From Halodesulfurarchaeum sp. (GTDB taxonomy: Archaea > Halobacteriota > Halobacteria > Halobacteriales > Halobacteriaceae), in the NCBI GenBank assembly GCA_042216015.1, contig JBDGUI010000013.1, positions 1-64,000 on the forward strand: 64,000 nt of DNA, in the 5' to 3' direction. Numbering within the stretch: the stretch's first letter is position 1; each line of letters opens with the position of its first letter. Of the stretch, positions 4,484-62,060 are shown in pieces. Position numbers and translations under genes: made by a program. The notes beneath the pieces were generated by a model, which saw only the letters and a program-made list of their open reading frames with translations, did not search any database and was not told the DNA's origin.

Positions 4484-4557
4484 GTCCGGGTGCGAGAATT
4501 GAACCCGCGTCTCAGCCTCCACAAGGCTGAAGGATAGTCCACTACCCTAACCCGGAC
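4484..4557 (-). tRNA. tRNA-His (GTG), genome-encoded G-1
   Basis: G-1 followed by TCCGGGT/ACCCGGA acceptor, C discriminator, anticodon loop TTGTGGA, T loop TTCAATT. Confidence 0.96.
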
Positions 4558-46982: not shown

Positions 46983-47438
46983 ATGGCAACTCTCTACGAC
47001 GCCCCTGCGGACGAGCTCATCGCGGCGCTCGCCGAGGAGCTCGCCGAGCGACTCGAGGAGCCCGACTGGGCCACGTACACGAAGACCGGCGCGAGCCGGG
47101 AACTCCCCCCCGAACAGGAGGACTTCTGGGCCACCCGCACCGCGAGTGTCCTTCGAAAAGTGGCGATGAACGCCCCGATCGGCGTGGAGCGCCTCTCGAC
47201 GGCCTACGGTGGCACGAAGGACGGCTCGAACCGCTACGAGGTCGCGCCGAGCAAGCGCAGCGACGGCTCACAGAAGATCCTCCGCGAGATTCTCCAGGAC
47301 CTCGAGGAGGAGGGCCTGATCATGACTCGCGACGGTGAAGGCCGGGACATCACGCCCGAGGGCCAACAGCTCCTCGACGAGACCGCCGGCGAGGTCATCG
47401 AGGCGCTCGACGATCCGGCTCTCGAGCGCTACGCCTAA
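46983..47438 (+). CDS. rps19e: 30S ribosomal protein eS19
   Basis: KTGASRELPPEQEDFWATRTASVLRK, ILQDLEEEG; TTTAAA at 46953-46958. Confidence 0.96.
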   Translation: MATLYDAPADELIAALAEELAERLEEPDWATYTKTGASRELPPEQEDFWATRTASVLRKVAMNAPIGVERLSTAYGGTKDGSNRYEVAPSKRSDGSQKILREILQDLEEEGLIMTRDGEGRDITPEGQQLLDETAGEVIEALDDPALERYA

Positions 47439-47524
47439 TTTTCGACTGCCGCTTTTTCGACCGCTGGGTTCGGTTTCATCGCACCAGCCGAAGGTTTATC
47501 AGCAAAAACCGGGCCAGTCCGGTT

Positions 47525-47640
47525 CATGCCCTAACCCGACGCCCGGATCGGTTCGCGGGAGTGCGACGACCCGATTCGGCACGATTCAGTCGCCTGTTCG
47601 CCCCGTCTCGTCCCGTTCGCCGACCGAACCCGATCAGGTG
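47525..47640 (+). ncRNA. Candidate structured small RNA, copy 1 of a two-copy element
   Basis: TTTATC 26-31 nt before ATGCCCTAA; core 33/37 identical to 60966-60930 (-); stem 47546-47555 pairs with 47625-47635. Confidence 0.5.
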
Positions 47641-48914
47641 CCCTGCTGCCAGCTGTCCATGTACTCCTGCTGGGTCGGAGTGAGCTCGTCGATCGCGATG
47701 TCCTCGGCCTCGAGCTTGATCTCTGCGACCTCCCGGTCGAGTTCGTCGGGGACCTCGTGGACACCGGCAGCGTAGTCCTCGCCGTTCGTGACGAGTTCGC
47801 GGACACAGACGGCCTGGATGCCGAAGCTCTGGTCCATGACCTCGACGGGATGGCCGAGCGAGACCGGGCTCGCCAGGTTCACCAGCCGTCCCTCGGCGAG
47901 TACGTTGATCCGGCGTCCGTCCCGCAGTTCGTACTCCCGGATGCCGTCACGGACTTCGGACTCCGCCACGGCGAGTTCGGACAGACCCTCGAGGTCGATC
48001 TCGACGTCGAAGTGGCCGGCGTTTGCCAGCACCACGCCGTCTTGCATCCGCTCGACGTGCTCGGGTGTGATTATGTCCCGGTTGCCGGTGGTGGTGATGA
48101 AGACGTCACCCTTTTCGGCAGCGTCGGCCATCGGCAGGACCTCGTAGCCCTCCATGTGGGCCTCGAGGGCTCTGCGGGGATCGATCTCGGTGACGACGAC
48201 CGAGGCGTTCTGGCCCGAGGCCTTCCGGGCGACGCCGCGACCACACTGGCCGAAGCCCGCGACCACGACGGTCTTTCCGGCCCAGGAGAGGTTCGTCGTC
48301 ATCGCGATGCTCGAGAGGGAAGCCTCCCCCGTGCCGTGGACGTTGTCGAAGAGCCGCTTCATCGGCGTGTCGTTCACGGCGAAGACCGGATACTCGAGCG
48401 CGCCGTCTTCGTCCATCGAGCGGAGCCGGTGGACGCCGGTGGTCGTCTCCTCCGAGCCGCCGACGATCGAGTCGATCAGCTCCGGGTGTTTCTCGTGGAT
48501 GCGGAAGACCAGATCCCCGCCGTCGTCGACGGTGATGTCCGGCTCGTGGCCGATCACGGCCTCGATGGCGTCGTAGTAGCCCGTTTCGTCGACGCCCCGC
48601 TCGGCGTAGGAGGTGATTGCATCGTTCGCGTCGAGGGCCGCGCTCACGTCGTCGTGAGTCGAGAGCGGGTTGCAGCCAGTGATGGCGATCTCCGCCCCGC
48701 CGGCGGCGAGCGTTTCGACGAGCGCCGCGGTCTTGGCCTCGACGTGGAGGGCCATCCCGATGGTGTAGCCTGCAAAGGGTTGTTCGGCCTCGAAATCGGC
48801 TCGGAGGGACTGGACGATCGGCATGTGCTCGAACGCCCAGTCGATCTTCTTTCGGCCGTCGGCGACGGCCCCATCGACGTCGGAGAGTCGGTCACTGATC
48901 GGAGAAGCGGTCAT
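47634..48914 (-). CDS. ahcY: Adenosylhomocysteinase
   Basis: [49 protein letters not shown]. Confidence 0.97.
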
Positions 48915-58532: not shown

Positions 58533-58812
58533 ATGCGTATCGATGGTGGTAGGCCGGCTCCGTGATCCGATCCGATCGTCCGGCTAGCGGGCGGGAAACG
58601 CGTTCTAACGGGCGGTAGATTTGCCCTCCAACCGGTCGCGCGCCGGGTCTCTTGCACCAGTGTTGGCAAACTTTGCGGGCCCCAGCAATGAATCCACCTC
58701 TTTTTCCCGGTGGACGGCAGTGCAGGTTCGGCCCCCTCGCACATGGTCACCGAACGGAACAACCCCGCTGGCCCGGAACGGACTTATTTGGCTCGCCACC
58801 TTATCCAGTCCC

Positions 58813-60807
58813 GTGAGCACCCGGACCGAGGCCCTCGACGCCCTGGTCTTCGGCGTCGACGTGCAGAGCGGCGACGTGCGCGGGGACACGCCGTCCTATG
58901 CGCTCTGTGTCTTCGACGGGAAGCCGGTGGAACGGACGACGGTGAGCTATCACAACCTCCTCCGGCGGATTCAGGACGTCGAACCCGATCTCGTCGCGAC
59001 GGACAACATGTACGAACTGGCGGCGGACAAGGACGACCTCGTTCGCTTTCTCCAGCGTCTGCCGGCAGAAACCACGCTCGTCCAGGTGACCGGCGACGAA
59101 CGGCCGGAACCCCTCTCCCGGGTGGCCAACCGGCATGGCGTCCCGTACGACACGGACCCGATGGCCGAAGCCGAGGCCGCAGCGCGGCTCGCGGCGCGGA
59201 ACGTCGGCTCCGCCGTTCGGGCCTTCGCCGATCGCACGACGGTGAAGATCTCGAGAGGGCGCTCGATCGGGAAGGGCGGATCGAGCGAAGATCGGTACAC
59301 CCGCCGGATCCACGGCCACGTCAAGACCGAGGCCCGACGCGTGGAGTCCGCCCTCGAGGAGGCCGGACTGGAGTTCGAGCGGGAGGTGACCGAGAAGTAC
59401 GGCGGTTTTTCGAACGCGGTTTTCACGGTCGAGGCACCGGTGAGCGAGATTCCCGTGTCCGCCGGCCGCTCGGGTGACACCAGAATCGAGATCGAGCCGG
59501 TCGAGCGCGATGGCATCGACTTCCAACCGCTCGTGACCCGGCGAGACAGGGTCTTCGTCGGCGTCGACCCCGGCACGACGACCGCCGTGGGGATCGTGGA
59601 CCTCGACGGGAATCCACTTGCGACCTGGCACAGCCGGACCGCCGACAGGGCCCGGGTCATCGAGTGGATCATCGAGCGCGGGCAGCCGGTGCTCGTTGCC
59701 GCCGACGTGACGCCGATGCCCGAGACCGTCGAGAAGATCCGGCGGAGCTTCGACGCGGCGGCCTGGACCCCCGCGACGGACCTGCCGGTCGACGAGAAGC
59801 TTCACCGGACCCGCGAGGCGGCGACGGCGAACGACCACGAGCGGGACGCTCTCGCCGCGGCGCTTTACGCGTTCGACGCCCACGAGGAGACGATCGAGCG
59901 AGTCGTCTCGAAGGCGCCCCGGACGGCCGACCGGGAGGCGGTCGTTGGCCGGGTGATCAAAGAACAAACCTCCGTGGAGGCGGTCCTCAGGGAACAGGAG
60001 GAGACCCAGGCGGAATCGGACACCGAAACGGAGTCGGAACCCGCCGAACCGAGCCCCGAACAGCGTCGGATCCGCGATCTCGAAACACAGGTCGAGCGAC
60101 TCCAGTCCCACGTCGAGGATCTCAAGGGCCGCCTCGACGAGAAGGACGCGACCATCGAGGATCTCCAGGACCGGCTCACCGAGGCCAAGCGCGAGGAGCG
60201 AACCGAGGCCCGCGCCCGCCGGGAGGTCTCGAGGCTTCAGTGGGAGACCGATCGGTTGGAGGCCGAACTCGAGGAGGAGCGCCGTGCGCGCGAGGACCTC
60301 GAGGGGAAACTCGAGCGGCTGAAGGAACTCTGGAAGCTCGATCACTCGAACTTCCCCGACGTGGACCAGTCCGGCGATCTCACCCCGGTCAAGGTGGTCG
60401 AGAAGTTCACCGTCGAGGCGATCGAAGCCACCCACGAGACCTACGGAATTGCGGCCGGGGACGTCGTCTACCTCCGGGACGCCTCCGGGGCTGGCCGTCG
60501 GACGGCCGAGCGGCTGGTCGAGTTCGAACCGCGGCTCGTCGTGCGGAACGGCGGGATCTCGGACGTGGCCGACCGATTGCTCTTCGAGAACGAGGTCCCC
60601 CTGGCTCCGGCCGAACTGGTGACGATCCAGGAGGTCGACGAGCTGGCGGTGGCCCGCGAGGCTGACGTCGAGGCGGCGATCGAGGACTGGGAGGACCGGG
60701 CCGCGGAGCGCCGCCGCTCACGGAATGCCGAAATGGTCGATCAACTCATCTCCGAGCACCGGGCCGACCGGCGGGACGCCGACCCGAGCGAGTTGCTCGA
60801 TTCCTGA
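58813..60807 (+). CDS. DUF460 protein (RNase H-like fold plus coiled coil)
   Basis: GVDPGTTTAVG, GGSSEDRYTRR, NDHERDALAAA, long coiled coil; GTG start. Confidence 0.88.
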   Translation: MSTRTEALDALVFGVDVQSGDVRGDTPSYALCVFDGKPVERTTVSYHNLLRRIQDVEPDLVATDNMYELAADKDDLVRFLQRLPAETTLVQVTGDERPEPLSRVANRHGVPYDTDPMAEAEAAARLAARNVGSAVRAFADRTTVKISRGRSIGKGGSSEDRYTRRIHGHVKTEARRVESALEEAGLEFEREVTEKYGGFSNAVFTVEAPVSEIPVSAGRSGDTRIEIEPVERDGIDFQPLVTRRDRVFVGVDPGTTTAVGIVDLDGNPLATWHSRTADRARVIEWIIERGQPVLVAADVTPMPETVEKIRRSFDAAAWTPATDLPVDEKLHRTREAATANDHERDALAAALYAFDAHEETIERVVSKAPRTADREAVVGRVIKEQTSVEAVLREQEETQAESDTETESEPAEPSPEQRRIRDLETQVERLQSHVEDLKGRLDEKDATIEDLQDRLTEAKREERTEARARREVSRLQWETDRLEAELEEERRAREDLEGKLERLKELWKLDHSNFPDVDQSGDLTPVKVVEKFTVEAIEATHETYGIAAGDVVYLRDASGAGRRTAERLVEFEPRLVVRNGGISDVADRLLFENEVPLAPAELVTIQEVDELAVAREADVEAAIEDWEDRAAERRRSRNAEMVDQLISEHRADRRDADPSELLDS

Positions 60808-60844
60808 GGTTCGAGTGGCGGATCGAACAGGTGGCCTGCAGGAA

Positions 60845-60966
60845 CTGGCGGTCTCCGGAACGGTGGGCCACACCCGGCAGGGGAACGGGAATGATCGCAG
60901 GAGCACGCCTGCCGCGGTCGGAAAATCCGCTCTCGCGAACCGTTCCGGGCGACGGGTCAGGGCATG
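60845..60966 (-). ncRNA. Candidate structured small RNA, copy 2 of the two-copy element
   Basis: TTCAAG 26-31 nt before ATGCCCTGA; perfect 10-bp stem between 60939-60948 and 60855-60864; homologous to 47525-47561. Confidence 0.5.
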
Positions 60967-61079
60967 GGGCGAGATGGTCAGGTTTTCGTACTTGAACCTC
61001 GGGTCGGCACGGCGGGATTTTGACCCCTCGATGGAACCCTTCCAGAAGCCATAACCTCCCGGCACGATTGCGGTGGGAT

Positions 61080-62060
61080 ATGGATCCCTACGACCTCCTG
61101 ACGCGGAACGCCTCGGAGGTGGTCACGGAGACGGAACTCCGGACGATCGCGGACGACCCCATGGGCAAGCGGGCCTACGTGGGATACGAGCCCTCAGGAG
61201 TTCTCCACATCGGGCACCTGTTGACCGCGAACAAGCTGATCGACCTGCAGGAGGCGGGTCTGGAGGTCGTGGTGTTGCTTGCGGACGTGCACGCGTATCT
61301 CAACGGCAAGGGCACGTTCGAGGAGATCCGGGAGACCGCCGAGCAGATGAAGGCCCAGTTTCTCGCCTACGGCCTCGATCCAGAACAGACGGAGTTTCGC
61401 TACGGCTCGGCCTTCCAGTTCGAGGAGGAGTACGTGCTCGACCTCCACACCCTGGCCCTCGAAACGTCGATCAATCGCGCCCAGCGGGCGATGGCCGAGA
61501 TTCAAAGCGGGGAGACGGTCACGGTCTCCCACGTGATCTACCCACTAATGCAGGTCCTCGACATCGAGTATCTCGATCTCGATCTCGCGGTCGGCGGGCT
61601 GGACCAGCGCAAGGTGCACATGCTCGCCCGCGAGAAACTTCCGGACCTGGGATATGCCGTGCGCCCGGCGATCCACACGCCGATTCTGGGGGACCTGACG
61701 ACCGGCGAGGGCAAGATGTCCTCGAGTGCGGGCGTCACGCTCTCGATGGAGGACTCCACTGCGTCGATCGAGGAGAAGGTCAATTCGGCGTTTTGTCCAC
61801 CGACTCGAGATCCCGAGGGCGAGAAAGTCAACCCAGTTCTCGAGCTGTTCGAGTACCAGATATTCCCCCGATTCGACCGCGTCGTCGTCGAGCGCCCCGA
61901 GAAGTACGGCGGGAATCTCGAGTATGCGACCCACGAGGCGCTCGCCGACGACCTCGAATCAGGCGACCTCCACCCGGCCGACGCGAAGTCGGCATTGGCC
62001 AGTCACCTCGACGACCTGATCGCCCCCGGTCGGGAGCGGTTGCGGGAGCTTCGGGACTGA
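61080..62060 (+). CDS. tyrS: Tyrosine--tRNA ligase
   Basis: YVGYEPSGVLHIGH, YPLMQVLD, GGLDQRKVH, KMSSS. Confidence 0.97.
   Translation: MDPYDLLTRNASEVVTETELRTIADDPMGKRAYVGYEPSGVLHIGHLLTANKLIDLQEAGLEVVVLLADVHAYLNGKGTFEEIRETAEQMKAQFLAYGLDPEQTEFRYGSAFQFEEEYVLDLHTLALETSINRAQRAMAEIQSGETVTVSHVIYPLMQVLDIEYLDLDLAVGGLDQRKVHMLAREKLPDLGYAVRPAIHTPILGDLTTGEGKMSSSAGVTLSMEDSTASIEEKVNSAFCPPTRDPEGEKVNPVLELFEYQIFPRFDRVVVERPEKYGGNLEYATHEALADDLESGDLHPADAKSALASHLDDLIAPGRERLRELRD

Follow-up and report, generated by a model that had tools for sequence, protein, structure and literature searches.

Comparison of genome sequences reveals a real, multi-copy, order-wide and strongly covarying family of predicted structured RNAs in the Halobacteriales, which has not been described previously. 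The copies share a promoter box, a leaderless start-stop minigene and a pseudoknot, and selection on each copy is shown by comparison. On our best reading, the RNAs would be the ribosome-engaging regulatory arm of a normally silent, competence-like regulon of this order. Haloarchaea trade genes heavily, and to our knowledge neither natural transformation nor its control has been defined in them. Through the promoter box, a concrete set of genes (pilus operon, TctA-like transporter, nucleases) and a candidate switch come into view, and with them haloarchaeal competence becomes open to direct tests. For the architecture, a leaderless start-stop minigene with a pseudoknot at recoding distance, we found no counterpart among curated families. 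We regard the family and its shared regulon as highly probable, and both stand even if the decoy role proposed below falls.

The RNA family and its fold

A preliminary description of the window (the whole 64,000-nt stretch of Halodesulfurarchaeum sp. DNA analysed) had aligned two intergenic segments, here copy 1 and copy 2 (Table 1). Their match over 73 nt without gaps (53 identical) and over the 37-nt core (33 identical) was reproduced; BLAST within the own genome gives E 2.4e-7, and the best further ungapped 37-mer elsewhere in the genome is identical to the core at 26 of 37 positions. Both copies do have TATA-like hexamers at -31 to -26 from the ATG, and each faces the 3' end of its convergent neighbour, which Pfam assigns as ahcY for copy 1 and as a DUF460 gene for copy 2. 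The words GATCGG/CCGATC and GAACGG/CCGTTC are also present where they had been placed. A stem partner about 80 nt downstream holds for copy 2, whose CCGTTC is the true arm of stem S1 because an insertion of about 60 nt sits in the loop; in copy 1 the conserved partner lies at 47571-47579 and not at 47630-35. At six orthologous rps19e/ahcY loci this near arm pairs in all, and the far CCGATC is kept in one. The proposed A/T compensation had thus compared non-homologous arms, and the supposed common internal motif TCCCGTTC occupies non-homologous positions, behind the tail in copy 1 and within the loop insertion in copy 2. The element is not limited to two copies of about 115 nt: 11 copies were counted in the own genome (87% complete), and the conserved unit measures 78 nt in copy 1 and 144 nt in copy 2. 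Folded singly, the two 115-nt segments are no better than shuffled sequences (z -0.96 and -1.01). Single-sequence folding is therefore uninformative, and the structure becomes visible only by comparison.

Table 1. Elements of the two copies in the window and their neighbouring genes
Feature	Position	Strand	Basis
Upstream neighbour rps19e (context, outside element)	46983..47438	+	Pfam PF01090
Copy 1, BRE and TATA box	47489..47500	+	sequence; family-promoter PWM
Copy 1, regulon box CCGGGCCA, CCA 12 nt ahead of start	47509..47516	+	promoter matrix
Copy 1, predicted RNA, 78 nt up to conserved tail end	47526..47603	+	covariance model, 73.9 bits
Copy 1, predicted leaderless minigene ATG-CCC-TAA (Met-Pro-stop)	47526..47534	+	sequence; family tally
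Copy 1, stem S1, 5' arm	47542..47551	+	covariation, orthologous loci
Copy 1, pseudoknot loop strand (GCGG, 4-nt bulge, GCGAC)	47555..47567	+	covariation
Copy 1, stem S1, 3' arm (conserved partner of GATCGG)	47571..47579	+	covariation, orthologous loci
Copy 1, pseudoknot stem S2, 3' strand, with conserved tail	47589..47602	+	covariation
Degenerate second tail with TCCCGTTC, outside conserved unit of copy 1	47610..47621	+	sequence
Convergent neighbour ahcY (context), stop 31 nt past copy 1 tail	47634..48914	-	Pfam PF05221
Convergent neighbour, DUF460 gene (context), approximate start	58621..60807	+	Pfam PF04312
Copy 2, stem S2, 3' strand, with tail	60821..60835	-	comparison
Copy 2, predicted RNA, long-loop variant, about 144 nt	60821..60965	-	comparison
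Copy 2, stem S1, 3' arm (CCGTTC)	60855..60863	-	comparison
Copy 2, pseudoknot loop strand, after insertion of about 60 nt	60867..60877	-	comparison
Copy 2, stem S1, 5' arm	60940..60949	-	comparison
Copy 2, predicted leaderless minigene ATG-CCC-TGA	60957..60965	-	sequence
Copy 2, regulon box CCTGACCA	60975..60982	-	promoter matrix
Copy 2, BRE and TATA box	60991..61001	-	promoter matrix
Divergent neighbour, class I Tyr/Trp tRNA synthetase (context), approximate start	61020..62060	+	Pfam PF00579

Further copies in the own genome and its relatives were found by BLAST and iterated HMM searches. A covariance model of the first stem only was built from 51 copies, among them copy 1, whose score is thus that of a training member. 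It matches 42 of 61 related genomes with 1-29 matches each, and 16 of 151 genomes in a sample of the phylum, all 16 in the order of the window; no match was obtained in 126 genomes from 22 further families of this phylum. True numbers may be higher, since a capped number of candidates was scored and long-loop and variant copies escape the model; all counts are therefore lower bounds. Copy 2 itself scores just 14 bits due to its loop insertion, even though all its parts are kept in three orthologues (L052-L054); its S2 strand and tail carry an A at one position that is otherwise a nearly invariant C. Scanning genome contigs for the core pattern gave at least 80 named loci. Among the matches listed, 24 are haloarchaeal (Haloarchaeobius, Halorussus, Halorubrum, Natronomonas, Halobaculum, Haloprofundus, Halobacterium and others); promoter and 5' part are present in all 24 and absent from the 56 others. 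The pattern CCA-start-X-stop shows no excess over the control in five RNA-negative genomes.

The preliminary description had proposed a paralogous structured RNA with its own promoter, distinct from tRNA, SRP, RNase P, C/D and H/ACA RNAs. This part of it is supported: the search it had suggested for homologues and covariation yielded further copies and covarying stems, and the suggested Rfam search left the element without a match to any family. It had overlooked the pseudoknot and the start-X-stop minigene, and also that the promoter is specific to a regulon. With Rfam 15 at gathering threshold, the element has no match in the whole window, whose sole Rfam matches are two tRNA genes (89-161 and 4484-4556, minus strand). 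At E<=10, sets of 8 and 10 loci and the copy 1 gap gave nothing above noise on the element. Searches of full-text literature, most subscription papers aside, listed no description of the RNA family or the promoter box; single members may figure there as numbered sRNAs. The accessible text of the COMPASS preprint (10.64898/2026.10.21.760802) names no haloarchaeal family, and one of its unnamed clusters may hold the RNAs. Ribosome-occupied sRNAs, given without sequences in the accessible part of PMC12265661, may likewise include some members. The searchable supplements of PMC5892119, seven files aside, do not contain the tail motif.

The unit reads BRE/TATA, CGGRCCA box, start-codon-stop, spacer, S1, loop, linker and 3' strand. 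S1 comprises 9-11 bp, the loop reads GCGG-NNGY-RCGRC, and the 3' strand GYCGY-CUGU-UCGC pairs back into the loop as S2. Since the members of alignment A1 had been picked for perfect S2 pairing and ordinary length, the S2 score in A1 is circular. For S1 in A1 the evidence is independent: RNAalifold recovers this stem, and 7 of its 8 pairs show two-sided changes. G-U outnumbers A-C in S1 by 32 to 5, which fixes the strand of the RNA. Alignment A2 consists of 42 model matches from loci outside A1 (identical sequences possible), collected with a model that had no knowledge of the pseudoknot. Here the lower helix of S2 is 94.6% paired, and 5 of its 7 pairs show two-sided changes; slid controls of the whole structure are 34-44% paired. 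Comparison thus shows a pseudoknot downstream of the predicted minigene in each copy. The top of S2 allows two registers, neither with two-sided covariation; among 500 parser-filtered cells, 7 are mismatched for GCGG/CUGU with a 2-bp GY/GC contact, versus 31 for GCGG/UCGC. One genome (G031) holds four variant copies (L455, L485, L486, L488) of a GCGAAAC-loop sub-family missed by the model; the sub-family, to which copy L542 of genome G028 also belongs, favours the alternative register. In copy 1, an RNA reaching 47640 would let the far arms compete, which suggests that the RNA ends soon after the tail.

The core bases are nearly invariant, more than pairing demands. This favours a sponge or scaffold RNA, in which a factor that regulates the regulon would bind to the pseudoknot core, and a ribosome on the minigene would shield the 5' end and spare the fold. 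Many paralogues are typical of titrating RNAs, for which CsrB/Rsm, 6S and RocR provide sponge or scaffold models. Loops that accept long insertions also fit. Nevertheless, none of the regulon proteins was identified as an RNA-binding candidate, and mere protection needs no fixed spacer between stop and stem; we consider this explanation, the main rival of our reading, unlikely, if worth keeping in mind. The compact nested pseudoknot, its invariant G-U pairs and a possible second knot of 2 bp would also suit a new catalytic or ligand-binding RNA, of which they would form the core. Among Rfam ribozymes and riboswitches there is no match, most copies have no downstream gene to control, and the minigene would be left unexplained, which makes a catalytic or small-molecule core highly improbable.

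The start-stop minigene

The minigene was tallied in 127 parsed entries (125 distinct) with a promoter score of at least 12, at least 8 S1 pairs and at least 4 of 5 S2 pairs. Among the 118 copies with ATG or GTG, 112 read start-X-stop, 2 start-stop and 4 are open; the stop is kept in 3 of 9 copies with ATC or GTC. Many parsed copies had been found with a model containing the 5' consensus. The 24 pattern-found haloarchaeal loci, selected with no 5' information, are free of that bias: 22 start with ATG or GTG, and 21 of these 22 stop within two codons, among the matches listed. Where the length varies, the step is a full codon (start-stop variants ending in TGA, TAA and TAG, and one start-X-X-stop), and the stop-to-stem spacer stays at 6-9 nt. 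This spacer measures 5-8 nt in 99 of the 112 start-X-stop copies, and S1 starts at nt 15-18 in 102 of 115 copies, which falls just beyond the +15/16 toeprint given for the 70S ribosome of Haloferax volcanii (PMC6104027). We consider it likely that the minigene is translated. Other features weigh against a reading purely at the level of codons. GTG is the start in 71 copies (about 60%), whereas leaderless GUG starts are weak in haloarchaea according to the accessible text of PMC4983044, with 2.6% of AUG activity or undetectable in two reporter studies and 6% of leaderless transcripts. Three regulon proteins in the own genome likewise start with GTG. TAG makes up 2 of 112 minigene stops versus 78 of 353 in genes, and G at +4 is rare (2%); both scarcities suggest that the 5' end may be read as sequence and not by its codons alone. 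Moreover, one orthologous group in three genomes (L037, L047, L242) has lost start and stop and kept promoter and pseudoknot. The survival of such copies speaks for the protein-binding explanation given above.

Among the closest known systems are the CreT toxins of haloarchaeal CreTA modules. They too are small RNAs in which a mini-ORF, translated in CreT and often with UGA, precedes a structure, which CreT requires; the form from H. hubeiense is leaderless as well (PMC8501985; PMC10097628, accessible parts). These shared features (PMC8501985) would fit an RNA toxin whose mini-ORF sequesters a rare tRNA. CreT has two consecutive rare codons, whereas each minigene here has a single sense codon; 26 different codons occur at this place, and 3 of 112 copies have a rare one there. 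An efficient start is expected of a CreT mini-ORF; here 112 of 118 copies read start-X-stop, and 71 of the 118 begin with GTG. Further differences are the pseudoknot in place of a hairpin, many dispersed copies, the lack of a CRISPR link and an activated promoter in common with a pilus regulon. No cas or creA context was seen at annotated loci, and no cas family occurs among 66 convergent neighbours scanned. A CreT-like toxin is therefore hardly to be expected. A haloarchaeal RNA known to act on the ribosome, rancRNA_s194 of H. volcanii, is also intergenic and about 100 nt long; as judged by its primers, its 5' end does not coincide with the minigene nor its 3' end with the tail, which rejects identity, and it is reported as a single, exponential-phase, mRNA-specific RNA in the accessible text of PMC6104027.

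Small RNAs with paralogues tied to competence exist in bacteria (csRNAs, RocR), and the lambda bar minigenes, also start-X-stop, burden translation. We know of none among these that unites minigene and pseudoknot, and no likeness to the family in sequence or structure is expected. Recoding pseudoknots such as that of MuLV gag-pol show the same arrangement of a stop codon, a spacer of 5-9 nt and an H-type pseudoknot. No conserved frame or gene follows the stop in the RNA family, whose unit length varies freely, which argues against a read-through product, unlike in MuLV gag-pol.

The promoter box and its regulon

The box has the consensus CGGRCCA with its CCA 11-13 nt ahead of the start codon. 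A matrix built from RNA promoters alone finds 24 sites above 20 bits in the own genome, the next-best scoring 15.8. With a refined matrix there are 26 sites above 20, and three shuffled genomes give 0-2 sites above 18. The 24 sites belong to 11 RNAs and 13 protein genes or operons. Pilus genes account for three sites in the pilB/pilC operon with DUF7310, DUF7311 and DUF7283-7286, which we take to be pilB1-C1, and for two at pilin-like genes. The other boxes belong to DUF7857-minD, a second minD-like gene, tctA and the genes of an RDD protein, a PLD-family protein, a Cas4-like protein, a NucS-like protein and NurA. The NurA gene follows a leader of about 150 nt behind the second-best box in the genome (G000:C13:27915, L235), which has no start codon. 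Further members may be a DUF5817 gene (C24:6216, 23.2 bits), NreA (C1:68869, 22.6 bits) and a HerA-like ATPase divergent from a pilin (C31:1022, 14.2 bits). The rps19e promoter has no box (score -9.3).

The same gene set stands behind the box in genomes G196 and G028, and in G196 RNA promoters outnumber protein promoters by about 3:1. Of 30 tctA loci, 29 have the box in front of the gene. The remaining locus, in G032, retains a 12-bit remnant, and this genome has neither the RNA nor DUF7286. The co-occurrence of RNA and DUF7286 was counted in 61 genomes (41 both, 1 RNA only, 7 DUF only, 12 neither) and in 35 good ones (26 both, 0 RNA only, 2 DUF only, 7 neither); as the genomes are kin, the counts are non-independent and Fisher tests descriptive only. 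One of the two good DUF-only genomes carries variant RNA copies. The seven double losses are spread over seven families, and three of these genomes (G042, G048, G053) keep boxes on some other genes. DUF7286 without a detected RNA was seen in G004, G014, G017, G023, G038 and G040, five of which are incomplete and the last of which has 48% GC; in G002 and G011 the regulon is retained alongside a single detected RNA copy. A high RNA dose is thus not needed for the regulon to be kept.

A promoter motif common to pilus, transporter and DNA-processing genes, as expected of a competence regulon, was found here. In Methanococcus maripaludis, a transformation screen named pili, a TctA-like protein whose gene is essential, a nuclease and a MinD-like ATPase. 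The accessible text describes neither a promoter box nor an RNA (PMC10133366), and the RNA model has no match in the methanogen-containing families of the phylum. It is because of this resemblance that we think the regulon fairly likely to serve DNA uptake or exchange. For pilB1-C1 of H. volcanii an adhesion phenotype is given, in a study whose accessible text contains no DNA-uptake test (PMC6491452), and the role of other haloarchaeal pilus loci is called unclear in PMC13705601. A comparable system is the TFB3-dependent Ups pili/Ced regulon of Sulfolobus acidocaldarius, which also combines an alternative TFB, a common promoter motif, pili and a DNA importer. It belongs to another lineage and uses Ced and not a TctA-like transporter; the accessible part of the report mentions no RNA family (PMC6101591). 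The CsmR motif TATCA-N4-TGATA was rejected as the regulon box, being a different site (PMC13286277, accessible part). The dRNA-seq table of H. volcanii (supplement 2 of PMC4983044) has six box octamers at 46 places, and at none of these is the regulon geometry seen. This fits a silent regulon and, taken without the H. volcanii genome, is no evidence about the RNAs.

A dedicated factor would turn on all sites together. The best candidate is a divergent TFB (G000:C6:63278-64138, L422) head-on to the box-driven DUF7857-minD operon; it adjoins minD in 28 of 30 loci, is absent from G028 with its 12 RNA matches and present in the RNA-less genomes G032, G042, G048 and G053. Near-complete G028 has a truncated DUF7286 gene, a truncated Cas4-like gene, no TFB orthologue and at least 12 intact RNA copies; its regulon is possibly in decay or under another activator. 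Once transcribed, each RNA would begin with the A or G of the start codon. A ribosome would load on this leaderless start and form at most one or two peptide bonds. At the stop it would meet the pseudoknot 5-8 nt ahead, at the mRNA entry. A terminating ribosome with a pseudoknot at its entry channel has the geometry of recoding signals. The RNAs might then hold ribosomes or termination factors as decoys, with the result that housekeeping translation would be damped during DNA uptake; copy number would set the decoy dose. The decoy role is the least secure step, and we propose it tentatively, at somewhat less than even confidence. The boldest version, a silent competence programme under an alternative TFB, most of whose promoters drive up to about 30 dispersed ribosome-trapping mini-mRNAs, and not proteins, that throttle translation during DNA uptake, appears doubtful. 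Were it true, it would add a new regulatory RNA class, and haloarchaea would have their first defined regulon for competence.

Placement and origin of the copies

The gene downstream is convergent in 95 of 119 called cases and co-directional in 24. Convergent stops lie a median of 22 nt behind the tail and abut it (-2 to +2 nt) in 23 of 93 cases, and the 66 convergent neighbours scanned are core genes of unrelated function. A cis-regulatory leader or riboswitch was rejected on this ground. The same bias would suit a cis-antisense RNA that covers the 3' UTR of the convergent gene and lowers its mRNA with the regulon on. It equally fits the avoidance of read-through into a sense gene; besides the co-directional cases, the targets share no common function, and an antisense effect requires neither pseudoknot nor minigene, so that we hold it for very improbable.

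Within four genomes the median identity of copies is 0.59-0.63, with a maximum of 0.88. Each diverged copy still has its box, its minigene and its fold, and within a genus orthologous sites are kept. From these comparisons, the copies are an old dispersal under selection with no recent burst. A MITE or non-autonomous IS with near-identical recent copies was rejected on these identities. The preliminary description had offered a small non-autonomous mobile element as an alternative, which the copy identity of about 60%, the kept orthologous sites and the 33 viral pattern matches, none of which carries the element, support poorly; the viral contigs also contain no tctA relative. A selfish or guide-like element, either with its variable 3' flank as a guide as in omegaRNA or as a parasite hitchhiking on transformation, would explain copy numbers of 0-29 without fixed sites, a pseudoknot ending right before the variable flank with the tail often abutting a convergent stop, unrelated core genes as neighbours and the tail duplications. 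The divergence of the copies and the viral result stand against it. No terminal inverted repeats or target duplications are visible in the aligned flanks, and the promoter lies outside the RNA and would be lost in RNA-mediated copying. No TnpB-like gene was found behind the regulon box. The omegaRNA (sotRNA) of IS200/IS605 was rejected, given no sot match in Rfam and a lone TnpB-domain gene on a contig without a copy. We judge a selfish or guide-like origin to be improbable, and return to the regulatory RNA as our preferred reading.

BLAST against plasmids and phages gave no match at a useful E; a possible Halorussus plasmid copy (NZ_CP119805.1:247541-247646) has 78% coverage at E 4. In closed genomes, most of the copies listed reside on the largest contigs. 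The copy on C25 lies directly 3' of the RNase P RNA gene (L048:1002-1530). The 3' tail is repeated downstream in L003, L048, L268 and at 47610-47621 of the window, as at integration sites.
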